From Nitrospiria bacterium (GTDB lineage: Bacteria; Nitrospirota; Nitrospiria; SBBL01; JAADHI01), in contig JBHHXH010000003.1 in NCBI GenBank assembly GCA_046756925.1, positions 1-62,749 of the forward strand: a stretch of DNA of 62,749 nt, in the 5' to 3' direction. Every line of letters starts with the position of its first letter. Position 1 is the stretch's first letter. The translations under genes and the position numbers were made by a program. Shown in pieces: positions 9,502-29,512 of the stretch. The notes under the pieces were generated by a model. It was not told where the DNA came from. It ran no database searches and saw only the letters and a list, made by a program, of their open reading frames with translations.

Positions 9502-11034
9502 TTACTGTAACAAGGCCAACACGTTCTGCGTGGTCGAGTTCGCCTGCGAAAGCACGGAAATACCCGCCTGCTGAAGGATCAAGGCCTTGGTCAAATTCGC
9601 AGTCTCTTGTGCAAAGTCCGCATCCAAGATTCTTGAACGTGATGCGGTGATATTCTCCCGCACGTTTTCCAGGTTGGCAATCGTCCCTTCCAATCTGTTC
9701 ATCATCGCACCCAGGGTCGCCCGCTCACTATTGACGGCGTCGAGCCCTTCCTTAACGGCAAGGATGGTCAAATTGGCATTTCCGACCGTGGTCACGCTGA
9801 CATCATTGATCGACTGGGACTGTCCGAGCGTCACCGACGTGGTGCCGGAGGCAATCCCCAAGGCAAGACTGTCGCTGCCTGCATTTATGGCGCGGGAAGT
9901 CGTCCCCAAGGGCGTGCTGAATATGATCTGTCCGTTTGAACCGGCCCCAGCGCTTCCGCCGGAAGTACCGAAGAAAGCCGCGAACTGACTCGCCACCCCC
10001 GCATTGGCCGTGGCGACCGAAACGGATATCGCAGCACCCGACGTATCGACAAGGGCAACGCTATAGGAACTCGCAGCACCCGAATCGGCGCTTCCCAAAA
10101 GCACCGCAGTCACACCGGTATTGGCCGTCTGGGCATTGATGGCGGTGACCATCCCCGAGGACAACTCGGCAATACTCGTGCCGACGGCGGCGGAAGAACC
10201 GATCGAAATACCATTGATCGTTAAATACCCGGCATTCACCGCCAAATCCGTCGCGCCGGCGGCTTGGGCAACAGGCGCCGTCCCAACAAACGCGTTGCCG
10301 AAGGAAAAGGCCGTGGTGTTGTGGGTTGCCGTTTTTTCGTTGACCCGGTTGATGACGTTCAGGCTGTTGTTGACGACATTGCTGGTCAAGATCGACGCGC
10401 CGAGGTCGACGGTGGCGATGGTGGCGCCATCCGAAAGACCGGCGCTCCGAAGCGACATCGCAGCAAGGGAGCTCGCCAGGCTGTTCCGGTTGGCAGCCGT
10501 GTCGTCAAAATTGGTTTGACTTGCCTGCACACCGAATGAATCCGGTGAAACATTGGCCGTGCTGACCGTGATGGTTTCGTTCACCTCGGTCCCCACCTGC
10601 ATTGTCACACTCTTCGGTTGGTTCAAAAACGTTTCACCATTGAATCGTGTCTGACCGACAATACGGTTTAGCTCTGCAATCAGCTCCTGGACCTCGTTGT
10701 CCATTGAGCCCCGGTCACTCGATGTATTATTACTGGCCGACTGGACGGCCAGTTCGTTGATCCGCTGCATCGAATTGAGCATCTCGGCCATCGCCCCTTC
10801 CGCCGTCTGCGCAAAAGAAATACCGTCATTGGCATTACGGATATTGACGCTCAGACCCTTGATTTGCCGGGTCTGTCTGGTGGCAATGGCAAGACCTGCA
10901 GCATCGTCACTGGCCGAGTTGATTCTCAGGCCGGATGAGAGCCGCGACATCGCTTTCTGAAGCGGCTGATTGGTTTTCCTTAAATTTCTCTGTGCATTTA
11001 GAGAGAATAGGTTTGTATTGATTCCAAGTGCCAT
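9502..11034 (-). CDS. fliC: flagellin
   Basis: N-terminus MALGINTNLFSLNAQRNL...LSSGLRINSASDDAAGLAIA and C-terminus FAQETANLTKALILQQAGISVLSQAN. Long Ala/Ser/Thr/Gly-rich central region. SD GGAGG lies 6 nt before the ATG. Confidence 0.96.
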   Translation of the reverse strand: MALGINTNLFSLNAQRNLRKTNQPLQKAMSRLSSGLRINSASDDAAGLAIATRQTRQIKGLSVNIRNANDGISFAQTAEGAMAEMLNSMQRINELAVQSASNNTSSDRGSMDNEVQELIAELNRIVGQTRFNGETFLNQPKSVTMQVGTEVNETITVSTANVSPDSFGVQASQTNFDDTAANRNSLASSLAAMSLRSAGLSDGATIATVDLGASILTSNVVNNSLNVINRVNEKTATHNTTAFSFGNAFVGTAPVAQAAGATDLAVNAGYLTINGISIGSSAAVGTSIAELSSGMVTAINAQTANTGVTAVLLGSADSGAASSYSVALVDTSGAAISVSVATANAGVASQFAAFFGTSGGSAGAGSNGQIIFSTPLGTTSRAINAGSDSLALGIASGTTSVTLGQSQSINDVSVTTVGNANLTILAVKEGLDAVNSERATLGAMMNRLEGTIANLENVRENITASRSRILDADFAQETANLTKALILQQAGISVLSQANSTTQNVLALLQ

Positions 11035-11174
11035 AATTTACCTCCTTGTAAGTGTCCTTGTTCATGGACAACATCCGGTTATCCATCAATTCACAAGATA
11101 TCAGTGAATGGGTAAGATTACTTTGTTGCACGTTCGACCCCATTCGGTCTCGACCTTTTCCGGTCTTGCAGATC

Positions 11175-11200
11175 TTATCGGAGGTTTTTTTAAAAACTTG
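11175..11200 (-). promoter_or_regulatory. sigma-28 (FliA)-type promoter for fliC
   Basis: Minus strand reads cAAGTTT-N11-tCCGATAAg. The consensus is TAAAGTTT-N11-GCCGATAA. Predicts a 5' UTR of about 130 nt. Confidence 0.55.
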
Positions 11201-11256
11201 AGTAAAAGGACGGAAAATCAATCGCAGAAAAATTGAAGGAAAATCGTCTTCTCCAC

Positions 11257-11280
11257 AAAATAAAAAGGGGTGGCCACCCC
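11257..11280 (-). terminator. intrinsic terminator ending the glycosylation operon
   Basis: Perfect 14-nt palindrome ggggtggccacccc (11267-11280). On the minus strand it is followed by ttttttatttt. It lies about 80 nt after the stop of the 671-aa gene. Confidence 0.6.
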
Positions 11281-11359
11281 CAAAGAAGACAATTTTTATA
11301 GGAAATTCCAGTGCTTGTAACGGACCCTGAAGATATCTAGAAAATTTGAAACTATTAAC

Positions 11360-13375
11360 CTAAACATTCAATAATTCTTTTGCAAATTCAATAAAATTTT
11401 CGTCTCTTGGAAGCGCACCGACCCATTTGGCATAGAACCGCATCCGTCGTTTCCAGTTCTCCTCGGACAGATCCGCTCCAAAGAAACACGCTTTATATTG
11501 AACCGCTAAATCATCGGAACAATATTTTATCGGGATATCGTTCCGCCGGGCAGTGAGGGAAAAATCCGGTTCGATCAGATGATTCGCCAAACCCTCGTCA
11601 AATCGTTCGAGTTTCTCATAAGTTTCCCTTTTCATCGCGATCACCCCCCCTCCAACCGCCTCTACCTGTTTGGACGTAGCGCGAATATAATAAGGAGAAG
11701 CGTTGAAGTCGAAACCGATCCCGAGGCAAACCGGCTTCATTTCCGCATCTTTTATCGGAACACCCGCAATCCCTTTTTGGATACCTTCAAGCATCTGCTC
11801 CCCCCTGATATACAATGTCCCCGGCGTCATGAAAATAAGGGCATCGCCTGTGGCGGCTTCCACACCTTGATTATAAAGACACCCGAGCTCATCGCCCGAT
11901 GCATCAACAACATGAAGATCCCCCGAAAACCCGGGAATCATTTCCCGAACCGGCTCATGGTGGACAACAAGCACCACTTCCCAATCCGGGTAGGATACAT
12001 TCTGAGAAAGAGACATCAAGGTTGCCGCCAGGGTTTCGGGTTCCTCTCCTGAGGGAACAATGAAGCTGATTCGGCCGGGGATCACCGTCGACTCTTCAAT
12101 CGACTTCGCCCTTCGTTTCATCACTCCGCACTGACCGACTTCTTTCCTCACCGCGAAGATATAGCTCATGCGATCTATCGCCCTTTCGACGGACCGGCCA
12201 TCCAGCTTGTAGAAATACGCTTCAAGATGCCGTTTGACACTCGTTTGGATCTCCGGAGGAACCCCATCTTTCATTGTGTGAATAAGCTTTGACCAGTTTC
12301 CCGGCGGAAAAACGGTCTGCGCCACGCCGATCTTCACGTAATAGTCCTCCAAGGTGTCGGAAGTGGGAAGGGCAAAAAGGGGTTTGCCAAATGCGAGGGC
12401 TTCGATGGCCAGGGTTGTTTTTCCAAGGGTCACGCAATAATCCGAGGCGGCGATCAGCTTGTAAGGGTCATAGTCGTATAACAAAATGGCGGAGGGATAG
12501 AGTTTCTTGAACAATTTTCTAACATCCTCATAGGCCCCCTTCAAAACACTGGGATGCCACTTGAAAATCAGAACGGCTTCTTCATCCAGCTGATCCAGAC
12601 CCGTCAAAAACTGCTTCCACACCGTCTCCCTGCCGATCGCGCCGTACTTGATATCGACAAGAAAGAGGACGACCCGTTTATCGGGCGGCAGCCCCAGCGC
12701 CTGCTTCGTCTCGGCAATCTTCTTGGATCCGCCGTACGATTGAATCGCCGACTCGATATGTGTGTTCCCGATCAAAAACATTTTGTCGGTGGAACAGCGG
12801 TAGTCGTTTAACCGACGCCGGGTTTGCTCTCCCCACAACAGATCGGCGATCGAATATTCGGTATGCACAACAAATCCGATATAGTCGTTGTAGTAATCCC
12901 CCTCCTGAAAGGTGACAAAGGGGATTTCATGACGATCTGTGAGATGCCCAATCACCTGCCCCCAGCGGTTACATTCGTGATGCGCGATGAACATGTCGGG
13001 CTTCTCAACCTGAATGAAGCGCTCCACGCAAAAATATTCCTCAACCACGGACTCGAAAAACCAGCTCTGCTTGAACAAGGGCCAGCGGCTGAATCCGTCC
13101 CACTTAAAGCAGGTTTCCGACCATTGATCGATCAAGGACATCGTCGCCTCATGGATCTTTTTTCTGACATCATCCGTCATATAGTCACGAAAATACCGAA
13201 AGGACAGATTTCGTCTCATGAGGTCCAACTCGTAGGGATAGTCCGCCAAGGTCACGATAAAGATCAATTCGCCACCCTGTTTTTTGATCTCTTCCCGCAT
13301 CTTGATAAAAAACCGCGAATGGTGCGGGAGGGCCAGGAAGCAGGCGATTTTTTTGCCCTTCAATTTCATCTTCAT
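11360..13375 (-). CDS. two-domain putative glycosyltransferase: unassigned GT-B-like N-terminal domain plus C-terminal GT2-like domain
   Basis: Residues from about 436 onward (ISFIVPSGEEPETLAATLMSLSQNVSYPDWEVVLV) look GT2/GT-A. The N-terminal ~430 aa carry FQEGD (res 156-160) and KWHPS (res 272-276). It is the last gene of the Pse operon, with a 4-nt overlap with the upstream gene. Confidence 0.6.
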   Translation of the reverse strand: MKMKLKGKKIACFLALPHHSRFFIKMREEIKKQGGELIFIVTLADYPYELDLMRRNLSFRYFRDYMTDDVRKKIHEATMSLIDQWSETCFKWDGFSRWPLFKQSWFFESVVEEYFCVERFIQVEKPDMFIAHHECNRWGQVIGHLTDRHEIPFVTFQEGDYYNDYIGFVVHTEYSIADLLWGEQTRRRLNDYRCSTDKMFLIGNTHIESAIQSYGGSKKIAETKQALGLPPDKRVVLFLVDIKYGAIGRETVWKQFLTGLDQLDEEAVLIFKWHPSVLKGAYEDVRKLFKKLYPSAILLYDYDPYKLIAASDYCVTLGKTTLAIEALAFGKPLFALPTSDTLEDYYVKIGVAQTVFPPGNWSKLIHTMKDGVPPEIQTSVKRHLEAYFYKLDGRSVERAIDRMSYIFAVRKEVGQCGVMKRRAKSIEESTVIPGRISFIVPSGEEPETLAATLMSLSQNVSYPDWEVVLVVHHEPVREMIPGFSGDLHVVDASGDELGCLYNQGVEAATGDALIFMTPGTLYIRGEQMLEGIQKGIAGVPIKDAEMKPVCLGIGFDFNASPYYIRATSKQVEAVGGGVIAMKRETYEKLERFDEGLANHLIEPDFSLTARRNDIPIKYCSDDLAVQYKACFFGADLSEENWKRRMRFYAKWVGALPRDENFIEFAKELLNV

Positions 13376-14535
13376 TGCATGATCCGGTGCAGAATGTCCT
13401 TGATTCCGATGGCAGATTGCTTCTCTTGATATGCCGCGTTCAATGCCGCCCCGAGCGCATCCGGGTGGTTGATAAACCGGACACCGTTGACATTGGGCCG
13501 GGCCGCGGCGCAGGGGTTATAAACCCAGGCCGCTTTCTGATATTTCGAAGCGAACTCCAATGGAGAAATGAAGGTCGGCGAAATGACCACGTCGGCGATC
13601 ATCGTCATCGGCACGAGGCTTTTGTTCTCCACAAGGTAGAAACGGCATCCCGTCTTTTTGATCTCATCAAGATAGGTGTCGTTGATAATCTCCTGTTCAT
13701 CCACGTCTTTCACAACAAACTCCCGCTTGATCAGGCAGATGACAATCTGCTTTTTCGTCCGCCGGATCACCTGAAAAATCTCCCTGATCTGGGGGCGCAG
13801 CTTGGAATGATTGAGTACGGCAACGCACAAGGCCTCCCGTCCGATCTCGATCTGATCGTTGTACATGTGATTCTTATAATTTTCTTCGATGGTCGATAAG
13901 GCATAGATATCCCGTTGATCGCCCAGTAAAAAAAGCCTGTCTTCCGGGATGCCCATTTCGAGATAGTACTGCCGCTCGTATGCCTCCCTCACGATGATCC
14001 CGTCCAGCAATTTCGGCATCAATTTAAACCCGTTGAATACGGGATAGAGCTGATAGCCGCAAACCGGCGTTCCGGTCTCCTTGGCGGTAAAGGCGATGGA
14101 GGTGTAGAGGACGTCCGTTTCCTCCGTTGGGATATCCTCGTAAGACAAAAGCGGCAGGAGCACCAGATCGGCATCGATGGTTTTCATGGTCGGGAAGGAG
14201 CAGCCGGAGATATGTCCCCAAAAATCGTCGAAGGCGGCGGTTTTCCACATCTTCAAACCGGTGGATGGAATGCAGAGATCCTCGGTATATTTTATAAAGA
14301 TCTTGGCAAGGTTGTCGCGATAGCTGAAGGAGAGGGGAAGAAAGGTGGTTTCCAGATGCTTCGCGATGACATTGGGGGATTCACCTAATTTGACTTGAAT
14401 ATCCTCGTACACGGTTTTGGAGGTCGTGACGACCTCGACCATAAAATCGGCGGCCATCGACTTGACCAGCAGCGCCAATCGACTCTGGACACATTGATAT
14501 TCCTTTTCGCTGATCGGAAACAGTATCTTTTGCAT
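13372..14535 (-). CDS. hypothetical protein (387 aa), possibly GT-B-like, family not recognised
   Basis: Long ORF translationally coupled on both sides (1-nt and 4-nt overlaps). I recognise no motif. Alternating hydrophobic/charged segments are compatible with Rossmann-like halves. Confidence 0.5.
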   Translation of the reverse strand: MQKILFPISEKEYQCVQSRLALLVKSMAADFMVEVVTTSKTVYEDIQVKLGESPNVIAKHLETTFLPLSFSYRDNLAKIFIKYTEDLCIPSTGLKMWKTAAFDDFWGHISGCSFPTMKTIDADLVLLPLLSYEDIPTEETDVLYTSIAFTAKETGTPVCGYQLYPVFNGFKLMPKLLDGIIVREAYERQYYLEMGIPEDRLFLLGDQRDIYALSTIEENYKNHMYNDQIEIGREALCVAVLNHSKLRPQIREIFQVIRRTKKQIVICLIKREFVVKDVDEQEIINDTYLDEIKKTGCRFYLVENKSLVPMTMIADVVISPTFISPLEFASKYQKAAWVYNPCAAARPNVNGVRFINHPDALGAALNAAYQEKQSAIGIKDILHRIMQ

Positions 14536-15098
14536 CAGTGCTCCCGTTCGCTCCTGCAGCCGTCGAGGTCCGACATCACTTCATACGCCTTTTGGAGCCC
14601 TCGATTTCCCGTCTTTTGTGCGAGGCTTTCGACCACATTCCGGATCGACGCCGCTTGGAAAGCCCCTTTGTAGGCGGTTGGGAGCAGATTTTCGTACAGC
14701 TCCTTCAAGGCGCCTGGGTGCGCATATTGATAATGGCAGTCCTCCGCATCCCCCTCCTCCAAGGCCAACAAATAGTGCACGATCCCTTCCATCATTTCAT
14801 CGTAGCGCATTTCATCCATCAAAAGGAGGGCATTCAGATACAACAGGTCGGCGTGGTTGCGTTTCACCTTCAGCCCTTCATCGACAAAATTCTTTGCTGT
14901 CTCTTTATCGGAGGCCTCCAGGGCAAGGACGGCAAGGTGGGACAAGATGCTGAAATAAACGGCGTTATTCGGGTTTTTTTGTTCCCCCGTCAACTGGGAA
15001 TAAGCCCTGTTAAAACAATCGAGCGCTTCGTCTTTCATGGCAAGTTTCAAGAAGGACAGACCCGATTGGTAATTCGCATCGTAACTCTCGGCAGTCAT
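14535..15098 (-). CDS. TPR-like helical repeat protein (187 aa)
   Basis: Repeated A/L/Y-rich helix pairs (GLSFLKLAMKDEALDCFNRAY; YFSILSHLAVLALEASDKETAKNFVDEGL). 4-nt overlap with pseI. Confidence 0.55.
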   Translation of the reverse strand: MTAESYDANYQSGLSFLKLAMKDEALDCFNRAYSQLTGEQKNPNNAVYFSILSHLAVLALEASDKETAKNFVDEGLKVKRNHADLLYLNALLLMDEMRYDEMMEGIVHYLLALEEGDAEDCHYQYAHPGALKELYENLLPTAYKGAFQAASIRNVVESLAQKTGNRGLQKAYEVMSDLDGCRSEREH

Positions 15099-16156
15099 TG
15101 CACGACTCCTTCTACATGATGCCAGTGCAAGGGCGTCCCTTTGTTCATATCGATCTTGGATTTTTTACCCAAAACTTTCGGCCAATATTTCGGATGCAGT
15201 CCGAAGCCCGGCCGGACCGACCGTATATTTTTTTCCGTAAAGGGCTCGCCGGCCTGGATATTTTCGACGACAAACAAAGAACGGGCAAACTGTCTGTTTT
15301 TCGTGGCCGCCTCGCCAAGCGCATAGGAGACTTCTCCCAAGGCCGCTTCAACCTCCCTCACACCCTGGACCATCGCACGAAAGACCTCCGGTTCCATCGA
15401 AAATGCCGCATCGGCCCCGCCAAGCGCGCGATCCAGAATAAGATGCTTCTCAATGATTTTGGAACCAAGCGCAACGGAAGCCAGCGGAACGCTCCTACCA
15501 AGCGTATGGTCTGAAAGACCCATCACAGCGTCAAAGGTGTCTTTCATGTCTGCAAGCGTCTTTAAGTTCACCTCTCTCAAAGGCGTCGGGTAAGCCGATG
15601 TGCATTTTAATAAGGCGATCTGCTGGTTGCCCATTCGCTTGCAAGCATCGATCGCCTCTACGATATCCTCGCGCGAAGCGATGCCGGTGGAGATCAACAC
15701 GGGCTTTCCCTTCTCGGCAATGTACTCAATGAGCGGAATGTCCGTAATCTCGAAGGAGGCGATTTTGTAGGCGGGCATGGCGATCGTTTCGAGAAAATCA
15801 ACGGCACTTCGATCGAAGGGCGACGAAAAACAGATCAGCCCGAGATCTTCCGCAATCTTCTTGAGTTTCGGCTGCCACTCCCAAGGGGTATAGGCCTCCC
15901 GATAGAGTTGATGGAGCGAAAGTCCGTCCCAGGGGGTCCCCCCCTTGATTTGAAAACAGTCCCGGTCGGAATCGATGGTGAGGGTATCCGGTGTGTAGGT
16001 CTGCAGTTTGACCGCATCCGCGCCGATCGCCTTCGCCGTTTCGATCGTCTTGACGGCCGTTTCGTACTGTTGTCCGTGATTCGCCGACAGCTCCGCAATA
16101 ATAAAGACAGGCTGCCCTTCGCCGATCCATCTGTCTGCGATGCGAAACTTCATCAT
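15095..16156 (-). CDS. pseI: pseudaminic acid synthase (NeuB family)
   Basis: IIAELSANHGQ, ADAVKLQTY, SSPFD, IASFE and a C-terminal SAF-like domain. The operon context with pseB/pseC/pseG favours PseI over NeuB or LegI. Confidence 0.8.
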   Translation of the reverse strand: MMKFRIADRWIGEGQPVFIIAELSANHGQQYETAVKTIETAKAIGADAVKLQTYTPDTLTIDSDRDCFQIKGGTPWDGLSLHQLYREAYTPWEWQPKLKKIAEDLGLICFSSPFDRSAVDFLETIAMPAYKIASFEITDIPLIEYIAEKGKPVLISTGIASREDIVEAIDACKRMGNQQIALLKCTSAYPTPLREVNLKTLADMKDTFDAVMGLSDHTLGRSVPLASVALGSKIIEKHLILDRALGGADAAFSMEPEVFRAMVQGVREVEAALGEVSYALGEAATKNRQFARSLFVVENIQAGEPFTEKNIRSVRPGFGLHPKYWPKVLGKKSKIDMNKGTPLHWHHVEGVVQ

Positions 16157-17622
16157 GCCCCTTGTCTCAACCGGACGGCATAGGTCTTGGCCTTCTGCTT
16201 TGAAACCGTCGTTTCTTGAACATATTCAAAACCGAAGCGCTCAAAGAAGCGAGTCGACCCTTTATTCTCACCTTTAATATGGGCCAATACGGTATCGACC
16301 TCCGGCCGCCCTCTTTTCAAGGAATCGATCCCCTTGTTGAGCAGCCATGCGCCGACCCCGCATCCCCGTCCGATTTGGTGAATGCTGATACTGACCACCG
16401 CGACAGGATCCTTGAGATCAAACCGCACTTGTCCGACCAAATCGGACCCGGCCTCCGCCACATAAAACAGGCAATGGGGATCCCTTAATCGATCGCCATA
16501 CCAGGAACGATGTGATGCCAGGCCAATCGGGTCCGGATGAAACGACGCCGCGCGCACCATAGGATCGTTCGACAAGGCGAATACATCCATTAAGTCGTTG
16601 TGCCGGGCCTTTCTGAAAACCAGCAATTCCGTAAAGTAGGACTTGAGACATTCGCGGACGATGCGTTCCGCACCGGCACCATCGACGGCCTCCCTGCCCT
16701 GCCGGGACATATTGAGCCTGCATTGCCTGTCCCTCAACAATTCGATCTTCCCCAATACGGCATCGGCCCAATCATCGCGTTTCCAACTACTGGCAGATTC
16801 GAGAAGTCCGGCCTGTTGTCCTCCCCTTACATTCGCACCCTGATTCCCGGCAACTGCGACCCCAATCACCGGCACGCCTACCCGGGCGCACTCATAAAGG
16901 GTTTGGCCGCCTGCAGAAACGACAATGTCCGCAGACAGCATCGCGGTCTTCATGCCCTCGGCATCCGGTGAAAAAACCGGTTTTGTATTGTGATCGCACG
17001 CGGCCTCAATGTCGTCGACATTTCGAAAATCTTTTCCAACCACAACCGTTTTTCGCCAATCCGGATAACATTCGGAAACCGCCCTTAATAGCTTCGGCGT
17101 CAGGTTTCGAAAATCCCCCCCGCCGAAGGTGATCATGACGTGATCGACATCCGTCTTGATTTCCTTCAAAGGAACCGTCCGAAAGGCCGCCCGCAGCGCG
17201 ATGTATCGAGGACCCAGAAGATAATGCAGGCCAGGTTTTTTCGGATAATCAATCTCGTCTGCTGCAATCGCCCCGTTGACAACCATCCCTTTAGGAAAGT
17301 GACGCCGATTTCCGTCATCCATATAAACGGCATACTCGGACGATGCGGCAATCGATTCATAAACACCGGTGTCGGCAAGATAGGAATCGACAAGAGTAAT
17401 ATCCGATCCCGCGATGGCCTCGCGCAACTTCCCTGGGTCTTTATGCCAATCAACGATTTGGGACTGTCTCCCGGTCAGAATATCCGGAACAGGTTCCTCT
17501 GTATGCAGAACGAACATCGGATCGATACCCCTCGCCTCGAAGGCCTGGGACAAGGACAGACACCGCATGAGATGGCCGTATCCGATATCGGCCCCATATT
17601 CCGTGATAAAGTTCACCTTCAC
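16153..17622 (-). CDS. fused PseG (UDP-sugar hydrolase) and PseH-like GNAT N-acetyltransferase
   Basis: N-terminal GADIGYGHLMRCLSLSQAF and a GT28-like fold through about res 330. C-terminal ~150 aa have a GNAT acetyl-CoA motif (IGRGCGVGAWLL). Confidence 0.75.
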   Translation of the reverse strand: MKVNFITEYGADIGYGHLMRCLSLSQAFEARGIDPMFVLHTEEPVPDILTGRQSQIVDWHKDPGKLREAIAGSDITLVDSYLADTGVYESIAASSEYAVYMDDGNRRHFPKGMVVNGAIAADEIDYPKKPGLHYLLGPRYIALRAAFRTVPLKEIKTDVDHVMITFGGGDFRNLTPKLLRAVSECYPDWRKTVVVGKDFRNVDDIEAACDHNTKPVFSPDAEGMKTAMLSADIVVSAGGQTLYECARVGVPVIGVAVAGNQGANVRGGQQAGLLESASSWKRDDWADAVLGKIELLRDRQCRLNMSRQGREAVDGAGAERIVRECLKSYFTELLVFRKARHNDLMDVFALSNDPMVRAASFHPDPIGLASHRSWYGDRLRDPHCLFYVAEAGSDLVGQVRFDLKDPVAVVSISIHQIGRGCGVGAWLLNKGIDSLKRGRPEVDTVLAHIKGENKGSTRFFERFGFEYVQETTVSKQKAKTYAVRLRQGA

Positions 17623-17625
17623 CCG

Positions 17626-18372
17626 TCAACCCTTGTCGGCAAATACCCGGAGCCGAAGATATTTTTGCGTGCTGTCCCTTGCGATATCGTAATAGCTGCG
17701 ATAGCTGCCGTCGGATTGAATCGCATAAAAGGTCGGGAATCCACCGGTCTCGAAATACAAACCACCTTCCTTACTGCTGGCTGGCCTCGTCTGAAAGAAA
17801 TCCCGGCGTTGTTGATGCAAGGCCGCAATCTGTTCCATGTTTCTAAAATTTTGAGGATAGACATCCATCACGGTCTTGAGCTCGAATGTCATCGATAGCG
17901 GATACAGCATCGGCAGATCGACGGGATGAATATTCCAGATGCCTTCGACATCCAAGAGCGCCATCTTAAACCTCGCACAGGATTCGATCGCCGTTTTGAT
18001 GGGTTCCGTGGACCGGGCCGTATCCGAGTCCCAAACCAGACGGCAATCCTCTTTAAGGACCCAGCGATGTGCTTTATATCGCATTTTAGACATATACATT
18101 CCCGCGCCACTGCTGGGCGTATAACTGCAAAACAGATGACCGATATTGGTGTAACAGAAAGACATCGCCGGATGCGGCGGCTGCCCCGGTTCGTAAGCAA
18201 CGTGCGCTGTTTCGGTCTTCCCGAAAAAGCAGTCACCCTGGATCACCACATGGGGCAGGTTGTAGGTCTCGATATGCTCCGGGCTGTTTGAGGGGATGGC
18301 GTCATCCGGCACCATGTAGGTGCGCAGCGAGGCGCCGTCGATGAGTTTTTCTATGATCTCTTTATCCGTCAT
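17626..18372 (-). CDS. hypothetical protein (248 aa), no recognisable family
   Basis: ORF is embedded in the operon, with a 4-nt overlap upstream and a 3-nt gap downstream. No motif recognised. Confidence 0.5.
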   Translation of the reverse strand: MTDKEIIEKLIDGASLRTYMVPDDAIPSNSPEHIETYNLPHVVIQGDCFFGKTETAHVAYEPGQPPHPAMSFCYTNIGHLFCSYTPSSGAGMYMSKMRYKAHRWVLKEDCRLVWDSDTARSTEPIKTAIESCARFKMALLDVEGIWNIHPVDLPMLYPLSMTFELKTVMDVYPQNFRNMEQIAALHQQRRDFFQTRPASSKEGGLYFETGGFPTFYAIQSDGSYRSYYDIARDSTQKYLRLRVFADKG

Positions 18373-19661
18373 TTAATAAGCGAAATGAGCCCCTTTTCTT
18401 CATACTTTTGGATGTATCGATACAAGCGGTCGTATTCGATCTCATGTTTTTCGGCGATATCAAAAATGCTCGTCTCCCCGTCGAAGTACCGGATAAGGCA
18501 GTTCATGAGGTGATTCCATTTCTTTTGGTCTTCCGGCACCGTCGGCCGGATGCTTGGGTCAAAAGTCGAAATATAGAGATCGTATTTGGGGTTGCTCAAG
18601 GCAACAAGCCCCTTGAAGTGCCGCTTCATTGTTGTATTGGTTTCGAGGATGCTGAGGATGCCCACAACGGCGTCGACGGCCTCTTCCAATTTTTCTTCGA
18701 AGATGATGTTTTCGGTATCCAGGCTCGAATGGTATTCGGGGTAAGGCATGCGCGAGAGGGAGATGCAGGGAATTTCATAGCCGGGGGCCTCCCAGACCGT
18801 CTCGTCGTTTCCAACGATTTTTCTAAAGGCATCCCCGTGGTAAGTGGAATGGCATCGCTTCAGATAGTGATGCGCGGCCCGATCGAGCAGCGTTTTGCCC
18901 GTGAAAGATTCCTGCAGGGCCAGGCGATTCTTGTTGCCCAGCATTTCGAGAAACATGGCGTATTTGAAGGTGCGGCATACCTTGTCGGAGAGACCGTTCA
19001 GATAGAAGATCGTCCCGAAGTGTTCCGGGGCGATAATGAGGCGGTAACTGAAGCGCCGTCTTTCCAGTTGCATCAATCGTTTCATCGCCTCCATGCCGAC
19101 GACCATCCCGGCGATATCGTCGTTCGCCTGCGCCGGGTGGCAGTTATGCGCATTGAGGATGATCGTATCGTCCGTCTCTCCGGCCAGAAAATAGTCGAGG
19201 ACCTTCATCGTACCGTCTTCAGTCACCGTTTCCAGTTCCACCTCGTAGTCCCCTTCGGGAAGGGATCGGTACAGATGGTAGGGCACGCAGAGCCCCCAGT
19301 CCTTGAGCCAGGGTTTGTAGTAATAATCGCAGTGATACACCAGGGCCTCGGCATAGTTTGGATGATAAAAGAGATGCTTTTTGAGTTCCGACAGGGGCAC
19401 CGTCCCTTTGAAGGAGGGGGAATAGCCGGCGACGCCCAGGGGATGCTGCATACCGTCGTAGATCAACTTTCCATCCTTTCTTATTTCCGCCTTTACTGCC
19501 TTCCATTTCTGGGGCACCGTCCAGCCGTTGTGTTCCAGACCGGACCGGTACTCATGGACCTTAAAGGGAAGGACATTACACAGCATGGATGCCCCTTTAT
19601 CAGCATCTTCAGACACCGGCGCCCATCGCAGGGGATAGAGCGTTTTAAGCAGATCAATCAT
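18369..19661 (-). CDS. DUF4910/DUF2172 aminopeptidase-like domain protein (COG4310-type)
   Basis: HEYRSGLEHNGWTVPQKWKAVKAEIRKDGKLIYD...GYSPSFKGTVPLSELKKHL matches the family pattern. A C-terminal winged-helix-like tail is present. This family is common in sugar-modification loci. Confidence 0.65.
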   Translation of the reverse strand: MIDLLKTLYPLRWAPVSEDADKGASMLCNVLPFKVHEYRSGLEHNGWTVPQKWKAVKAEIRKDGKLIYDGMQHPLGVAGYSPSFKGTVPLSELKKHLFYHPNYAEALVYHCDYYYKPWLKDWGLCVPYHLYRSLPEGDYEVELETVTEDGTMKVLDYFLAGETDDTIILNAHNCHPAQANDDIAGMVVGMEAMKRLMQLERRRFSYRLIIAPEHFGTIFYLNGLSDKVCRTFKYAMFLEMLGNKNRLALQESFTGKTLLDRAAHHYLKRCHSTYHGDAFRKIVGNDETVWEAPGYEIPCISLSRMPYPEYHSSLDTENIIFEEKLEEAVDAVVGILSILETNTTMKRHFKGLVALSNPKYDLYISTFDPSIRPTVPEDQKKWNHLMNCLIRYFDGETSIFDIAEKHEIEYDRLYRYIQKYEEKGLISLIK

Positions 19662-20688
19662 GGTTGACCAGACCCTCCGTATCGTAGGAGGCTTGATAAG
19701 ACATGGACGCTTCCAAATATTGAACCGGCGTGTGAAAACGCTGCCCGGCCTTCAGCTCCGGCACGAGGTCTTTTCCGTTTTCGGCCAAGATCCCTTCAAC
19801 GACGATGCTGCCGGAACGCGTGGCGATCAATGCCGAAGGTCCGGACACCCTGTAGACGAGCCCGGATAGAAAGGGATGCGATGAAAAGTTGACGGGCGCG
19901 ACTTGACACCTTTTCAAAAAGACCCTTTGGCCGCCGAGAAAGGTCGAAGCCCCTGGATAGGGATCGTCGAAGGCGCAGATAAAGCGCGCGATTTCATCCC
20001 GATGCCAAGACCAGTCGATAAAGGCCTGTTTTATGGTTGAAAGCCGAGGGAAATAGCTGCGGTTCGCTTCATTAAGCGGGACCGGGGCGAATGTTTTGTC
20101 CGACTGGATTTCGTCCATAAATTCGATAAACAATTTGAGCCCTTCCTCATGCGCCAGTTGAAAATAATCCTTTGGAATGCGGGCCCAACTCGGAATTCCA
20201 TATTCCCGCGTCTTGATCAATTCCCCGGAATCGAACACGCCCGGCACCATTTCGTCGTTGATCACCTGTATATTCCAACATCCGACCTTGTCTTCTCTCA
20301 AGATCTGCCAAGTGAAATGCGCCCCGCCACGGTACTGCGGCAGCCGGATGACCATGAAGTCGAACAGCCTGCCTTGAAATCGCGCGATCGTCTCCTTGTC
20401 GAATCGATAGGTCTCTCCGAGGCCGATGCCCATCGTTTTTTCCGACACAAGCGATTGGAGTTCCGGTGAGACGTTGACATCCCTTGCATGAACCGTTGGG
20501 ATCGACGCCACGTCGAGGGCTGCTTCGAGACACAGGCCATCCTCATTGCTCAGCTGTTCTTCAAGGTGTCTTTTCACGGCAAAAACCGTTGGTTGAATCC
20601 CTCTTTTAAGGGCTTCCTTGGCAAAGGCAACCATCAAAGGACCACCGCCGAAAAGTGCCAATTTTTCTATCGGACCAATCTTCATCAT
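19654..20688 (-). CDS. formyltransferase-fold (Fmt-like) protein
   Basis: RLPQYRGGAHFTWQIL aligns by eye with the Fmt SLLPRWRGAAPI motif. Start is placed at the Met pair (20688/20685) after the GNAT stop at 20702. The track ORF start at 20739 overlaps the GNAT gene. Confidence 0.65.
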   Translation of the reverse strand: MMKIGPIEKLALFGGGPLMVAFAKEALKRGIQPTVFAVKRHLEEQLSNEDGLCLEAALDVASIPTVHARDVNVSPELQSLVSEKTMGIGLGETYRFDKETIARFQGRLFDFMVIRLPQYRGGAHFTWQILREDKVGCWNIQVINDEMVPGVFDSGELIKTREYGIPSWARIPKDYFQLAHEEGLKLFIEFMDEIQSDKTFAPVPLNEANRSYFPRLSTIKQAFIDWSWHRDEIARFICAFDDPYPGASTFLGGQRVFLKRCQVAPVNFSSHPFLSGLVYRVSGPSALIATRSGSIVVEGILAENGKDLVPELKAGQRFHTPVQYLEASMSYQASYDTEGLVNHD

Positions 20689-20701
20689 CGATGCCGTCCG
20701 C

Positions 20702-21229
20702 CTAATCCCGCAACTTTTCCACGAGCACCTCGTCCACATAGCCCCCCTTGTAAAAGCGGTGACATTTCATTCTGCCCGCCTCACGCCATCCCGCCTTGAG
20801 AAAGGCCTTGTGGCTTCCGATATTGTTGGCATAGAGTCCCGCCACGACCTTCTGAAGGTTGAGCTCCTTGAACGCATAAGTTGTCGCCATTTGAATGGCT
20901 TCAGTCCCGATCCCTTGTCCCCGCATCGATTGTTCTCCAATCAGGAGACCGATGTCCGCGAAGCGGTGAAGTGGAGCGATCCCGCCGATTTTGATGTTGC
21001 CGATCTGCCGGCCATCCTCCAATAAAAAAATGCCGAATAAATAAGCATTCGGATCCTCATTGAGGGTCTTTACGTAGGCCTTCAGCGCATCCAGTCCATA
21101 GACCGTCCATCGGCTCTCCAGAAACTGAATCACCGCTTCATCCTGCATCCAATCGATGTAAACCGGGGTCACATCATCAGGAGACAAGAGCTTTAAATAG
21201 ATCCGTTTTCCCGTCACGCGCATATCCAC
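20702..21229 (-). CDS. GNAT family N-acetyltransferase (RimJ/RimL-like)
   Basis: 175 aa. Acetyl-CoA motif RGQGIGTEAIQMATTYAF and C-terminal KAGWREAG. Confidence 0.8.
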   Translation of the reverse strand: MDMRVTGKRIYLKLLSPDDVTPVYIDWMQDEAVIQFLESRWTVYGLDALKAYVKTLNEDPNAYLFGIFLLEDGRQIGNIKIGGIAPLHRFADIGLLIGEQSMRGQGIGTEAIQMATTYAFKELNLQKVVAGLYANNIGSHKAFLKAGWREAGRMKCHRFYKGGYVDEVLVEKLRD

Positions 21230-21234
21230 TCCCT

Positions 21235-21996
21235 TCAGGCGTCCCGCACGGGCACCTTTTTCCCTGTTAGATAGGCCTTGATCCGCACGATATCGTAATC
21301 CCTTAAAAACAGCATCTTCCCGACGGCGGCCGCATCGCAGTCGCTCTGCTGAAAAAGCGACACCAGGTCGTCATAACAACCGGCGCCGCCCGATGCAATC
21401 AACGGGACATGGATAAAGGACCTCACATCTTGGTAAAGCGCATTGTCGTAACCGTTTAGGCTTCCCTCTCGATCGATGACCGTGAGCAGGACTTCGCCCG
21501 CCCCGTTTGAGATAAGCTGTTTGAGTACCGTCTCGAAATTGACATCGACCTTTTGTTTTCCAGAAAAGACATAAGGTGCGTAGTCGCCGTCCGCGGCCTT
21601 TTTCACATCCAATGAAACAACGACGGACTGCGCGCCGAATTCCGCCGCCAGTTCGCCGACCAGGGATGGATTGAGGACGGCATGGGTATTGACGACAATC
21701 TTGTCGGCCCCTGCTTCGAAACAGCGTCTGGCCTCTTTGACATTCCGGATGCCGCCACCCGCGGCAATCGGCAGGCGGCAGCGGCGGATCATGTGATCGA
21801 TCACCTCCGTATTGACCACCCTCCCCTCTCGGGAGGCGTCGATATCGACCAGAATGATTTCGTCCGCGCCTTGTGCGTCATAAATCATCGCCTGGGAAAG
21901 CGGATCACCCACGTCGGACAATTCGCCGAACCGCCTTCCTTTCACCAGGCGGTTCCCCTTCAATAAAAATAGCGGGATGATTCTTTTCCGGATCAC
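21235..21996 (-). CDS. HisF-like imidazole glycerol phosphate synthase cyclase subunit paralogue (WbuZ-type)
   Basis: IIPLFLLKGNRLVKG, DEIILVDIDASREG, LPIAAGGGIR and IPLIASGGAG. Located in a glycan locus next to the HisH-like and amidotransferase genes. Confidence 0.85.
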   Translation of the reverse strand: MIRKRIIPLFLLKGNRLVKGRRFGELSDVGDPLSQAMIYDAQGADEIILVDIDASREGRVVNTEVIDHMIRRCRLPIAAGGGIRNVKEARRCFEAGADKIVVNTHAVLNPSLVGELAAEFGAQSVVVSLDVKKAADGDYAPYVFSGKQKVDVNFETVLKQLISNGAGEVLLTVIDREGSLNGYDNALYQDVRSFIHVPLIASGGAGCYDDLVSLFQQSDCDAAAVGKMLFLRDYDIVRIKAYLTGKKVPVRDA

Positions 21997-22604
21997 GCAA
22001 GGGTCTCCACGACATTCTTGAGAAACCGGAGACCGTCCCCCTGACTCTTCTCCGGGTGAAACTGCACGCCGACAATATGGTCCTTCCTGATACTTGAAAC
22101 GATCGAGGAACTGCCATATTGGGTGGTCGCCGCAACGACCTCCGTTTCTTCCGGGATAAATCGATAGCTGTGCATAAAATAAAACGCGAGAGACCGAATC
22201 CCCCGGAACAAACCATCATTGATCGGCGCCACCGCGTTCCAACCCATGTGCGGAAGTCGAAGGGCCTCCCCTTGAATCTTTTCGACGCGTCCCTTGATCC
22301 ACCCGAATCCGGCATTCTCGCCATCTTCATAACTGACATCGCCGAAGAGCTGCATACCCAGGCAGATGCCGAGCAGCGGTTTTTTCTTGATTTGGACCGA
22401 TTCGTTCAAAGAATCCCAAAAATCGAGGGTCTTCAGCCGATGCACCGCCGTCGTGAAATTCCCAACGCCGGCCAATACAATCATGTCGACCGCATCCAAT
22501 TCTTTCGGATGGCTCACCAGACGCACATCGTATCGATAAAACTGGAACGCACTGTAAACCGAACCAACATTTCCGATACTATAATTCACGATACCGACCT
22601 TCAT
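21993..22604 (-). CDS. HisH-like glutamine amidotransferase subunit (WbuY-type)
   Basis: Start MKVGIVNYSIGN at 22604 forms an ATGA overlap with the upstream stop. Has the Cys nucleophile motif GICLGMQLF and GVQFHPEKS. Confidence 0.85.
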   Translation of the reverse strand: MKVGIVNYSIGNVGSVYSAFQFYRYDVRLVSHPKELDAVDMIVLAGVGNFTTAVHRLKTLDFWDSLNESVQIKKKPLLGICLGMQLFGDVSYEDGENAGFGWIKGRVEKIQGEALRLPHMGWNAVAPINDGLFRGIRSLAFYFMHSYRFIPEETEVVAATTQYGSSSIVSSIRKDHIVGVQFHPEKSQGDGLRFLKNVVETLA

Positions 22605-23743
22605 GCCCGCTCCCGGTACCACAGTTCCTGATCCCACAACTTCGGCCCATCGGGCAGTGTGATCGGATCGATCCTTTTCGCCGGCGGGATCACATGTTTG
22701 AGGACAATGGCGTTGAAGGTCTCCTCCGTCATGTCGAGATATTCCAAAAAGACTTCCAGGCTCCTCGGTTTTCTCGGTTCGTATTTTTCAATCAGGGCCA
22801 GGGCTTCATCCCGCATCATGCGGCCATGTTTGATATCCAACGTGGTCAGATGCGTGATCCGTGAAAACCCCCGCTTTAGATATTTGATATAGTCCCGCAT
22901 CCCTTGAAACATGCACTCGATCTTTTCATAGGTCGGGCCGGGCAGGGCGCTTTCTATTTCATCCTCCTCCCACCCCAGCTTCACCTTGTTGATCTCCACC
23001 TGTTTTTGAACATCCCATGGAATGAAATTACCGAGGGGCAGGCTCTTGACCCCCGCGGCATCCAGCTCCCTTTTCGTCGGATAGATATAGGGCTCCAGAT
23101 CCCGCAACGCGCATCCGATAAAGCCGGCCATGTCTTCCGCACGCATCCCCATGATGATGCGGCGGTTGTATTTCCACTCGTTGGTTTCCTCCAGGTCCTG
23201 ATATTTGAAGTAGGCCTCGTACTCCCCACCCCCTTCCCCCCAGATCACCAGCGGGATGCCGAGCTTAACGGCCATCTTCATCGGATAGGAAAAGATACCT
23301 GCATGGCAGTGCCAGCAAAAATCCCCCCGTCGGATCAGGGCCTCCAGCATCAAGCGCTTGACGATCTTCCAGTTCGGCGTGAAGGTCATCACATCGACGC
23401 CGAGGGTCCTGAAGGTCCGTGTGCGGTTCTCGATCGTCCTGGGACGATAAAATCCATGATCGAAGGAAACGACCAGGGGCTTCATGCCGTATTTTTTCAC
23501 GATGGCCCACAGGGTATAGGTCGAGTCCTTTCCGCCGCTGAAGGGCAGGATGCAATCGTAAGGCGCATCCGTTCGTTTGGCTGCTTCGATGACCTTTAGG
23601 AGACCTCTTTCACGTTCCTGCCAGTCGATCTCTTTCTCTTTCGTTTCCCAGTTCCGGCAGATGTTGCAGACCCCTTCGTCATCGAAGTAAAGGGTTTCCC
23701 AGGTCACCGGCAGTGTGCAGCGAAGGCATCTCTCTATGGCCAT
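22601..23743 (-). CDS. N-acetyl sugar amidotransferase (WbpG/WbuX/PseA-like, PP-loop)
   Basis: N-terminal Cys4 (CLRCTLP...GVCNIC) followed by PP-loop SGGKDSTY. 380 aa. Confidence 0.85.
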   Translation of the reverse strand: MAIERCLRCTLPVTWETLYFDDEGVCNICRNWETKEKEIDWQERERGLLKVIEAAKRTDAPYDCILPFSGGKDSTYTLWAIVKKYGMKPLVVSFDHGFYRPRTIENRTRTFRTLGVDVMTFTPNWKIVKRLMLEALIRRGDFCWHCHAGIFSYPMKMAVKLGIPLVIWGEGGGEYEAYFKYQDLEETNEWKYNRRIIMGMRAEDMAGFIGCALRDLEPYIYPTKRELDAAGVKSLPLGNFIPWDVQKQVEINKVKLGWEEDEIESALPGPTYEKIECMFQGMRDYIKYLKRGFSRITHLTTLDIKHGRMMRDEALALIEKYEPRKPRSLEVFLEYLDMTEETFNAIVLKHVIPPAKRIDPITLPDGPKLWDQELWYRERA

Positions 23744-23754
23744 CCGTTTTCTCC

Positions 23755-25797: not shown

Positions 25798-25798
25798 C

Positions 25799-26686
25799 TC
25801 AATGCGCCCAATGGTAGGGCAGCAGAATCCGCTCGTCGTCAATCGCAAACGTTTTCCATAAAGGTCCTATCCTTCGATAAGCGGCCCGGTATCGCTCCGA
25901 AAGACAGGCAATATTCCGATTAAAATGGGCCAGCGTATCGACACCGATAATGATGCCGTCTAAGAAACGATTGGACAGTCCGAATAAGAGGGGCAGACTT
26001 TCGAACGGCAAAGCTGCGGCTTCGGATATTTCTCTTAACCTGGCCAGTTTTTCTTTCACCTTCAAAAAAGGACCGACGAGCTTCGCGTCATCAAGAAAAA
26101 ACAAGCCTTGCAAAAAAGCGGAACGTCCAAACAAGGTAAACCCATCTTTTTTAAGCCTTTCAAGCAGTGCTCCGGCAAGAAAACGTTGGTCAAACAGATT
26201 CACAGGAAACGCGAAGGCCATTTCCTCGTGGGCTTCATCGGCAATCTGCTTCATTTCTTCCGGATGATAAACGGACACGCCGTATTGTCCAATGACCTTC
26301 TTCCTTTTATAGCCCTGCAGAACGGGAAGTATTCGATCTCTATACTTCCGGTAGTCCTGAAAAGAATGCATCAAGAGGATATCAATCGACGGTATCTGCA
26401 ATCGATGTAAAGATATTGCGATGGCTTCTTCCACCGCCTCGGGCGTGGAATAGTCCTGCTCGCGAAGTTTTGATATCACCTTAAAGACCTTTCCGTTTCG
26501 TTTTAAAAATCCTCCAATGCGTGCTTCGGCATCCCCATACGCTTGGGCCGTGTCTATCCCCCAAATCCCGCCCGCCTGGGCGGTGGTCAAAATCCGGTGG
26601 ATCCGGCTGCGATCGAGCTGGCGGCCGTTTGCGATCCCATAATTCAATCCGAAATTTGCCGTTCCGAGCACCAGCTTATCCTTCAT
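25799..26686 (-). CDS. aldo/keto reductase family oxidoreductase
   Basis: MKDKLVLGTANFGLNYG N-terminal AKR signature. The start at 26686 gives an ATGA overlap with the pseC stop. The track start at 26803 is an upstream extension. Confidence 0.8.
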   Translation of the reverse strand: MKDKLVLGTANFGLNYGIANGRQLDRSRIHRILTTAQAGGIWGIDTAQAYGDAEARIGGFLKRNGKVFKVISKLREQDYSTPEAVEEAIAISLHRLQIPSIDILLMHSFQDYRKYRDRILPVLQGYKRKKVIGQYGVSVYHPEEMKQIADEAHEEMAFAFPVNLFDQRFLAGALLERLKKDGFTLFGRSAFLQGLFFLDDAKLVGPFLKVKEKLARLREISEAAALPFESLPLLFGLSNRFLDGIIIGVDTLAHFNRNIACLSERYRAAYRRIGPLWKTFAIDDERILLPYHWAH

Positions 26687-28837: not shown

Positions 28838-28877
28838 CAAAATTGTCCTCCCAAACGTTCCATAGGCTGACTAACTA

Positions 28878-29026: not shown

Positions 29027-29512
29027 TCACTTATTGACCGAGAGGCGACTTGAAACCATTTCTTGTTTTTTCATTGGAAATTTTATGATCGGTTCGCGAA
29101 TGGGGTATCCCGATTCATTCAAGACGATCTGTCTCCCTCTCCGCAATTGATAATTGATGACCAGCGGCGCCATCAGGTTGGCGGATAACTTTATCGGATC
29201 GTCTTTCGGGAGATTGACGATCGACAAGAAAACAAGGTCCTTGAGACCCTTCGCCTTAAGGTAAAGCAGATCGGGCGAAGCAATTTCAGGCCGGTATGCG
29301 GGTTTGACGATGAGCGGATCGATAACGACGAAACCCAAATCGTTATTCTCCACCGACTGAAGCCATAAAAGCGGGTGTCCTTTTTCGTACTCGATCAATA
29401 GGTATTTTTTTAAGCTCGGAAATCCGAGTATGCCGTCTGGAAACGTCATCAGCGAATCCTGATCGCACGTATTCGAACAATCACGCTGAACATGCTTCGT
29501 ATCCTTCATCAC
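29027..29512 (-). CDS. fliW: flagellar assembly factor FliW
   Basis: FPDGILGFPSLKKYLLIEYEKGHPLLWLQSVENNDLGFVVIDP is the FliW core pattern. ATGA overlap with the csrA stop. Confidence 0.88.
   Translation of the reverse strand: MMKDTKHVQRDCSNTCDQDSLMTFPDGILGFPSLKKYLLIEYEKGHPLLWLQSVENNDLGFVVIDPLIVKPAYRPEIASPDLLYLKAKGLKDLVFLSIVNLPKDDPIKLSANLMAPLVINYQLRRGRQIVLNESGYPIREPIIKFPMKKQEMVSSRLSVNK

Follow-up and report, generated by a model that had tools for sequence, protein, structure and literature searches.

Two classes of enzyme, Maf and FlmG, have been described in the literature to attach pseudaminic acid (Pse) or legionaminic acid (Leg) to flagellin, and work on how each selects its donor and its acceptor is still under way. 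The tetratricopeptide repeat (TPR) domains which are fused to FlmG and to Maf-1 bind flagellin and are required, and Maf-2 of Shewanella oneidensis needs a separate factor encoded in cis, GlfM. The protein O-glycan of Tannerella forsythia loses its terminal Pse or Leg derivative when the genes for Tanf_01245 or TFUB4_00887 are deleted, and D/E-D/E-G and HP motifs were noted by the authors of that study; these enzymes serve general protein O-glycosylation and place their sugar on an N-acetylmannosaminuronic acid (ManNAcA) residue of a lipid-assembled O-glycan (PMC5420450). KpsS1 (GT118) of Acinetobacter baumannii, which is related to KpsS/KpsC/WbbB, is a retaining Pse5Ac7Ac transferase acting on capsule. 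The present analysis concerns a stretch of 62,749 nucleotides from a Nitrospiria bacterium of the phylum Nitrospirota (contig JBHHXH010000003.1, assembly GCA_046756925.1), the whole of which is called the window below, and in it three consecutive genes between pseI and the flagellin gene fliC which encode proteins of 187, 387 and 671 amino acids. On balance these three, here called the trio, probably form a cytoplasmic module for the O-glycosylation of flagellin, which is co-transcribed with the pathway to the activated sugar, cytidine monophosphate (CMP)-Pse, and stands in the place of Maf or FlmG. This reading rests on gene structure, folds, motif conservation, remote homology and a synteny with fliC and CMP-sugar genes which extends across phyla; which molecules serve as acceptor and donor, in what order the enzymes act and what the adaptor does are deduced, and the roles of the individual domains are assigned with less confidence than the function of the module as a whole.

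The features of the locus are the following, in the direction of reading of the minus strand.

15095-28840, minus strand: pseudaminic acid operon, from Pfam and NCBIfam matches
15095-16156, minus strand: pseI (TIGR03586 PseI, E 6e-146, above cutoff)
14535-15098, minus strand: gene of the 187-amino-acid TPR-like protein, from the list of open reading frames (ORFs)
13372-14535, minus strand: gene of the 387-amino-acid protein, from the ORF list
11360-13375, minus strand: gene of the 671-amino-acid protein, from the ORF list
12122-13375, minus strand: N-terminal GT-B domain of the 671-amino-acid protein (amino acids 1 to about 418), from AlphaFold2 and Foldseek; candidate CMP-pseudaminic acid transferase
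12896-12907, minus strand: Q157-E158-G159-D160 motif, after beta-strand 153-157 in the first Rossmann half of this domain
12551-12562, minus strand: K272-W273-H274-P275 ('HP') motif, following beta-strand 267-273, the second strand in the second Rossmann half
11363-12082, minus strand: C-terminal GT2-like GT-A domain of the 671-amino-acid protein (amino acids 432-671), from PF00535 and AlphaFold2 secondary structure
11266-11281, minus strand: hairpin like that of an intrinsic terminator (GGGGGTGGCCACCCC and a T run), 3' of the 671-amino-acid gene
11175-11201, minus strand: sigma-28-type promoter-like site for fliC, TCAAGTTT-N11-TCCGATAA, with 2 mismatches to the consensus
9502-11034, minus strand: fliC, encoding a 510-amino-acid flagellin with Flagellin_N and Flagellin_C domains, the presumed acceptor

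The trio had first been noticed by a reading of the letters alone, the original prediction, which described three genes tightly coupled to each other and to pseI, at the end of an operon for the Pse core and right before fliC. This description proved to be correct in its ORFs, overlaps and coordinates: passing from pseI to the TPR gene, the 387-amino-acid gene and the 671-amino-acid gene the overlaps are 4, 1 and 4 nucleotides, and fliC follows downstream after a gap of 325 nucleotides. As this spacer contains both the terminator-like hairpin and a sigma-28-like site of its own for fliC, the sugar and transferase operon would stop after the 671-amino-acid gene and fliC would be transcribed separately; sigma-28-type sites were matched four times in the window, compared to 0.45 matches expected by chance. 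Serine and threonine together make up 26.7% of the central region of the flagellin (residues 141-425). Each of the three families is real, with full-length homologues of matching length, and the best relatives of the window proteins are proteins from metagenome-assembled genomes (MAGs), Manganitrophaceae among them, at 65-67% identity. A megablast search of the region in E. coli genomes gave no match. Plus-strand ORFs across the trio (e.g., 14538-15119 and 12824-13429) were regarded as antisense shadows, because it is the minus-strand ORFs which have conserved full-length homologues; no homologue search was made for the plus-strand ORFs.

The conservation of this arrangement was followed in a synteny scan with one genome per GTDB species, which comprised 47 loci, 37 of them with enough upstream DNA. 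The 387-amino-acid gene was adjacent to the 671-amino-acid gene in 25 of these 37 loci by script and a TPR gene was present in 23; the figures become 26 and 24 with locus L040, which the script missed through an over-extended ORF and which was scored from ORF coordinates. Downstream DNA was available for 22 of the 387-positive loci, and fliC was found there within 4 kb in 15 (16/23 with L040). A survey of whether the trio accompanies pse genes in Maf-less genomes had been suggested in the original prediction; in the loci scanned here Pse genes were at most 10 kb away in 19 of the 25 387-positive cases, and PF01973, the Maf domain, was absent within 10 kb on either side of the six trio loci which were annotated with Pfam. 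The order TPR-387-671-fliC-fliD-fliS recurs in Dissulfurispira thermophila, a Gammaproteobacteria MAG, Syntrophorhabdus and other Nitrospirota, and a CTP_transf_3 CMP-sugar synthetase is encoded directly before the trio or one gene upstream of it even where the sugar pathway differs. The trio is thus a conserved module located between nonulosonic-acid/CMP-sugar genes and fliC in three phyla.

Several variants of the arrangement were seen. In some trio loci, L002 (1762-7646), L056 (2421-8270) and L003 (1598-3017), the upstream sugar genes do not belong to the Pse core, with short-chain dehydrogenase/reductase, aldehyde dehydrogenase, transketolase-like, Methyltransf_21 and CTP_transf_3 genes instead, which suggests a different CMP-activated sugar in these trio loci; further upstream a 745-amino-acid TPR protein is encoded in L056 and a 493-amino-acid GT2+TPR protein in L003. 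The contig of the trio locus L009 carries a second 387-671 copy (L054, 6484-11992), where a gene for a 709-amino-acid multi-TPR protein overlaps the start of the 387-amino-acid homologue; this copy is not beside fliC and has B12-radical-SAM and methyltransferase genes downstream on the other strand. In another variant the 387-671 pair stands at the head of a Pse operon and a TPR gene is missing. Solo homologues of the 671-amino-acid protein from Magnetobacteriaceae share about 40% identity with it, keep all its motifs and are encoded beside signalling and housekeeping genes with no 387-amino-acid, TPR, flagellin or sugar genes nearby (L051 10001-12001, L052 10001-12010, L022, L025-L027, L029-L034, L037, L039, L041, L042). 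In the complete-genome MAG of Ca. Manganitrophus sp. GAC4 (L047 10119-14240, CP114561) the 671-amino-acid homologue and fliC are both split into several ORF fragments, which may reflect assembly frameshifts or genuine pseudogenes.

A Maf-type transferase had not been recognised anywhere in the window in the original prediction. This holds for every ORF scanned with Pfam, as the Maf domain MAF_flag10/DUF115 (PF01973) was matched neither in the trio nor in any other scanned ORF of the window. The scan covered nearly all ORFs of about 170 or more amino acids up to position 53,236; the ORFs outside it have at most 275 amino acids, and most of them lie beyond 47,000 in a stretch flanked by rpoA and secY, where they were taken unscanned as ribosomal-protein genes. 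Among the scanned ORFs there was also no fusion of TPR and GT-B domains, and no Wzx, Wzy, ABC-transporter, initiating phosphoglycosyl-transferase, polymerase or lipid-carrier domain. The GT-A-variant fold of the Maf type, which is like that of the GT29/GT42 sialyltransferases, was not encountered in the trio, where the 387-amino-acid protein and the N-terminal domain of the 671-amino-acid protein are GT-B and the sole GT-A module is GT2-like. In the window, as in every homologous locus examined, the TPR protein has an ORF of its own apart from those of the GT-B proteins, unlike in FlmG, which is a single polypeptide. A transmembrane segment was found in none of the trio proteins.

The operon which ends with the trio encodes, in this order, pseB, pseC, an aldo-keto-reductase-like ORF, a fusion of pseF with an aminotransferase, WbuX/HisH/WbuZ, a GNAT, a formyltransferase-like protein, a DUF4910 protein, a 248-amino-acid protein, a pseG-GNAT fusion, pseI and the trio. 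Equivalog cutoffs are exceeded by PseB, PseC and PseI, and the subfamily cutoff by WbuX. With PseB, PseC, PseH-like GNATs, PseG, PseI and PseF the operon covers each of the six steps to CMP-Pse, so that the trio is not needed for making this sugar nucleotide. In the fusion protein (697 amino acids, 23755-25848, minus strand) a PseF-like CMP-sugar synthetase (CTP_transf_3) is joined to a class-III aminotransferase, and such a fusion of about 680 amino acids recurs in the related loci L055 and L057. Tailoring genes are unusually many at 16153-22637 (minus strand), comprising the PseG-GNAT fusion, the WbuX/HisH/WbuZ acetamidino module, the extra GNAT, the formyltransferase-like protein and the DUF4910/DUF2172 aminopeptidase-like protein with a helix-turn-helix tail, and this richness implies a heavily modified Pse derivative. 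The 248-amino-acid ORF (17626-18372, minus strand) has no family.

Of the 139 matches of the 671-amino-acid protein the best 120 extend over its whole length or nearly its whole length at 39-67% identity, and with few exceptions they come from Nitrospirota MAGs. Conservation was counted in an alignment of 46 homologues with 39-67% identity, and from these 46 sequences AlphaFold2 yielded a model with a predicted local distance difference score (pLDDT) of 90 and a predicted template modelling score (pTM) of 0.88. The model consists of two Rossmann-like halves (residues 1 to about 418), a low-confidence linker (418-425) and a domain of alternating strands and helices (432-671). Foldseek matched the N-terminal domain to GT-B proteins with E of about 1e-13 and a target-normalised TM-score of about 0.7, so that the GT-B character supposed by the original prediction is found for the first 420 or so amino acids. 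Residues 253-408 of the window protein were matched by NF046086, the 'BFO_1060 family glycosyltransferase' (37.4 bits, E 1.6e-9), and by TIGR04396 (E 1e-7, far below cutoff). In the family the former model was matched by 38/46 members, with a best E of 8.4e-16, and the latter by 19/46; weaker Pfam matches were Epimerase_2 in 13/46, Glyphos_transf (PF04464) in 7/46 and DUF354 in 4/46. Within the Tanf_01245/TFUB4_00887 family of T. forsythia, BFO_1060 is the protein from strain 92A2. To judge from these profile matches the N-terminal domain is a remote homologue and not a member of the BFO_1060 family, and its closest characterised relatives by sequence are the T. forsythia transferases for Pse and Leg derivatives. 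DUF354 was considered as a home family for the domain and not adopted, the support being weak: a DUF354 protein encoded nearby in L001 gave 22 bits, besides the four Pfam matches.

Two motifs in this domain, FQEGD at residues 156-160 and KWHPS at residues 272-276, had been pointed out in the original prediction as reminiscent of CMP-sugar transferases of the GT-B type. Both are at these positions and are conserved well beyond chance, with Q157, E158, G159, K272, W273 and H274 invariant in 46/46 sequences, D160 kept in 45/46 and P275 kept in 44/46. The HP motif falls within the stretch matched by NF046086, the QEGD motif outside. The N-terminal domain is the best candidate for a CMP-Pse transferase in the trio.

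The C-terminal domain had been called GT2-like, and this stands at the family level: PF00535 is matched by 40/46 members at E<0.01 (best 1.3e-9), strands and helices alternate in the AlphaFold2 secondary structure as in a GT-A fold, and the PDB profile search with the 671-amino-acid family returned over this domain GT2 enzymes only. The window protein itself remains slightly short of the PF00535 gathering cutoff, with 22.3 compared to 23.3 bits. In place of the DXD motif all 46 sequences have F515-[M/L/I]-[K/R/T]-P518-G519, with lysine or arginine at 517 in 35/46 and no conserved acidic residue. F592-D593 and D604 are invariant in the domain, and most members also keep G591 and E602. The GT2-like domain may be metal-independent or non-catalytic.

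For the 387-amino-acid protein no recognisable family had been seen, and at the sequence level this is still the case, since searches in Pfam, NCBIfam and with a PDB profile gave no match; the fold, by contrast, is clearly GT-B. The AlphaFold2 model has a pLDDT of 91 and two Rossmann-like halves, and Foldseek matched it to GT-B proteins at E of about 1e-9 with low TM-scores, which are ascribed to the two halves being set at another hinge angle. The family is very small, with 47 word-based matches and 63 relatives at E <= 1e-3 among 1.84 billion representatives. The most distant of these relatives is a genuine Pfam GT4 protein (PF00534), to which hhalign aligned the family profile over residues 172-375 with a probability of 93% and E 3.5e-7. 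Twenty-eight residues are invariant in the family, and these are rich in aspartate, histidine, arginine and glutamate (charged ones include D103, D104, H108, D141, H243, R247, E280 and D315), a pattern expected of an active enzyme. From the EX7E motif of GT4 enzymes the second glutamate (E327) alone seems retained in an alignment mapped by eye. A paralogy with the N-terminal domain of the 671-amino-acid protein was tried with hhalign and rejected at a probability of 0.8%. The 387-amino-acid protein is proposed to be an orphan GT-B transferase, remotely GT4-like in its C-terminal half, and to act as a second glycosyltransferase.

The 187-amino-acid protein had been described as TPR-like, and TPR repeats were indeed found in its family, 10/14 members of which match TPR_8/TPR_2 with a best E of 8.6e-8. 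The window protein itself matches TPR_12 weakly (E 1.5e-3, Pfam), and the PDB profile matches of the family are marginal and all to TPR proteins. Homologues with 28-34% identity are encoded at the same position in Dissulfurispira, the Gammaproteobacteria MAG and Syntrophorhabdus. The protein is proposed to be a soluble adaptor which binds flagellin or an enzyme.

Taken as a flagellin glycosylation module, the trio might work as follows. The TPR protein would be a separate factor for acceptor recognition or assembly, binding flagellin and/or the enzymes in the manner of the stand-alone GlfM or of the TPR regions within FlmG and Maf-1. The N-terminal domain of the 671-amino-acid protein would take CMP-Pse and move the nonulosonic acid onto serine or threonine residues of the central domain of flagellin, or onto a sugar already there. 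The GT4-like protein of 387 amino acids would act as a second transferase, whose donor is probably an ordinary nucleotide sugar or else a further Pse derivative, and the GT2-like domain could be a third transferase or a non-catalytic module. As the characterised relatives of the N-terminal domain act on a sugar acceptor, this domain may cap a sugar which has been set by the 387-amino-acid enzyme rather than modify serine or threonine directly.

A number of observations weigh against a flagellin glycosylation module with the 671-amino-acid protein as its CMP-Pse transferase. The 37.4 bits of the NF046086 match are far below the 200-bit cutoff and stem from model positions 219-360 of 365 only, its C-terminal third. 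The first motif reads Q-E-G with an invariant glutamine at first place and not [DE]-[DE]-G. The DXD motif after strand 4 of the C-terminal domain is absent in 46/46 sequences, which leaves the suggestion of a longer glycan, drawn in the original prediction from the extra GT2 domain, insecure. Some 387-671 pairs have neither a TPR gene nor fliC nearby, the 671-amino-acid homologue of the Magnetobacteriaceae, which are magnetotactic Nitrospirota, stands solo and away from flagellar and sugar genes, and a Maf or FlmG may be encoded outside the 62.7-kb window covered. Further, Foldseek ranked UDP-GlcNAc 2-epimerases first for the N-terminal domain, followed by MshA and BshA, and the PDB search with the profile of this domain gave one match, a marginal one to the UDP-GlcNAc 2-epimerase 4NEQ from M. 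jannaschii (E 0.065). These last points lead to the reading that the GT-B proteins are enzymes of the 2-epimerase/hydrolase type, NeuC- or PseG-like, which diversify the nonulosonic acid and do not transfer it. UDP-GlcNAc or UDP-sugar 2-epimerases are the top Foldseek matches of the 387- and the 671-amino-acid protein alike, the Epimerase_2 matches in the 671-amino-acid family fit with it, and in the 4NEQ alignment, which is marginal and too weak for a decision, EAG pairs with QEG and HPR with WHP, so that the motifs alone are no proof of CMP-sugar use. In the same marginal alignment, however, HE-N stands in place of the epimerase GDT, LQEG in place of VEAG and LVD-WG in place of the first-strand HR(A)EN, so that neither GDT nor HR(A)EN is kept in it, and the window protein has no Pfam Epimerase_2 (PF02350) match. 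As the BFO_1060 model matches more members and matches them more strongly (38 compared to 13, best E 8e-16 compared to 1e-6), as the epimerase positions are not retained in the marginal 4NEQ alignment, and as the Pse pathway is complete and requires no 2-epimerase, a transferase is favoured. The fusion to a GT2-like domain and the coupling to a TPR protein also suit transferases better, and the C-terminal half of the 387-amino-acid protein is remotely homologous to GT4 transferases, all of which makes the epimerase reading quite improbable.

A role of the trio in glycan elaboration only would leave the linkage of Pse to serine or threonine to a Maf or FlmG from another part of the genome; the trio would then add sugars to Pse already bound to flagellin or cap a sugar with Pse, like the accessory glycosyltransferases of other islands. 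That the acceptor to which Tanf_01245 and TFUB4_00887 add Pse or Leg is a sugar and not protein, that three glycosyltransferase-like modules are present where a single linkage needs one enzyme, and that no more than 62.7 kb of the genome were covered would agree with this division of labour. It is nevertheless unlikely, since PF01973 was detected neither in the scanned window ORFs nor around the six annotated trio loci, and since the module includes a TPR partner, which is typical of flagellin glycosyltransferases that recognise their acceptor. Hardly probable, too, is a target other than flagellin, such as lipopolysaccharide (LPS), capsule, pilin, S-layer or another protein, with the vicinity of fliC resulting only from a shared Pse operon. 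The solo homologues in Magnetobacteriaceae and the 387-671 pairs lacking fliC indicate that the proteins are not tied to flagellar loci, and the T. forsythia relatives serve general protein O-glycosylation; against this stand fliC at most 4 kb downstream in 15/22 assessable loci from three phyla and the flagellar genes which flank the window operon on both sides. A function in capsule or LPS in particular is unlikely because no export, polymerase or lipid-carrier domain occurs in the scanned window ORFs and the trio proteins lack transmembrane segments.

The flagellar genes around the operon follow each other on the minus strand as flgF, flgG, flgA, flgH, flgI, then flgN, flgK, flgL, csrA and fliW upstream of the pse genes, and as fliC, flaG, fliD and fliS after the trio. 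The fliC leader (11035-11110, minus strand) contains two AAGGA motifs just upstream of or overlapping the Shine-Dalgarno sequence (ACAAGGACACTTACAAGGAGG), and csrA (29509-29772) and fliW (29027-29512) are encoded as a pair in the window, which together suggests a control of flagellin translation by FliW-CsrA as in Bacillus. A second sigma-28-type site, TAAGGTTT-N11-ACCGATAA (33686-33712, minus strand, 2 mismatches), lies upstream of small ORFs before flgN. Outside the flagellar/Pse cluster a Kelch-repeat beta-propeller protein of 295 amino acids is encoded (40099-40986, minus strand), with a sub-family-level match to the Pfam model of NanM (N-acetylneuraminate epimerase; E 5e-25).

If the trio does glycosylate flagellin, as a conserved module which lacks Maf and has its TPR partner separate, it would be a third solution to the task and would explain flagellar glycosylation in Nitrospirota, a phylum for which we know of no experimental glycobiology. 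Functions would be assigned to two uncharacterised protein families, and new soluble CMP-nonulosonic-acid transferases would become available for glycoengineering. A more far-reaching proposal, which is put forward tentatively, is that of a third flagellin nonulosonic-acid system, without relation to Maf and also different from FlmG, in which a stand-alone TPR adaptor would bring flagellin to a two-protein assembly, and this assembly would build a Pse-containing oligosaccharide in the cytoplasm. The assembly would have three modules, an orphan GT4-like GT-B and a sialyltransferase/TagF-like GT-B fused to a DXD-less GT-A, and the system would be spread over Nitrospirota, some Gammaproteobacteria and Syntrophorhabdus.

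Literature searches on TIGR04396, on DUF354 and on flagellin glycosylation in Nitrospirota yielded no description of the trio module, and it is by comparison with the systems outlined at the beginning that its position becomes apparent. With KpsS1, compared by description, the 671-amino-acid protein shares a GT-B-type fold, the lack of relation to Maf and, putatively, the activity of a pseudaminyltransferase, whereas KpsS1 acts on capsule and not on protein. With the GT52/GT80 sialyltransferases and the TagF-type Glyphos_transf proteins (PF04464) its N-terminal domain has in common the GT-B fold, a K-x-H-P following strand two of the C-terminal Rossmann half and, in the N-terminal half, an acidic-Gly motif, a placement of motifs which we take to match that in PmST1 and TagF; it differs from these by QEG in place of [DE][DE]G, and no significant sequence or PDB match to them was found. 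To the Tannerella transferases (NF046086) it is linked by homology over the second Rossmann half, HP motif included, by the GT-B/TagB-like superfamily, by the lack of a transmembrane segment and by the location of the genes near nonulosonic-acid genes. The Tannerella enzymes, in contrast, are stand-alone (the Tanf_01245 gene has 1338 bp, corresponding to about 445 amino acids) with no GT2 fusion and no TPR or GT4-like partner, and they are not flagellar.

The closest likeness in overall design is to the flagellin systems themselves. Maf-2/GlfM and Maf-1 resemble the trio in combining a glycosyltransferase with a separate or fused flagellin-binding factor, yet Maf enzymes carry the GT-A-like MAF_flag10/DUF115 domain, and GlfM is a predicted four-helix bundle and not a TPR protein. 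The original prediction had considered that the trio could be a split or expanded FlmG-like system. FlmG of Caulobacter and Brevundimonas, compared by its published description, is, like the proposed trio module, composed of TPR and GT-B modules, Maf-independent, cytoplasmic and linked to Pse and flagellin genes. The separate-adaptor layout of the trio bears directly on a recently proposed interconversion between bipartite and tripartite systems of flagellin glycosylation. FlmG is one polypeptide of 596 amino acids with a TPR domain of 313 amino acids, whereas the trio has a separate TPR polypeptide of 187 amino acids and two further glycosyltransferase-like modules.

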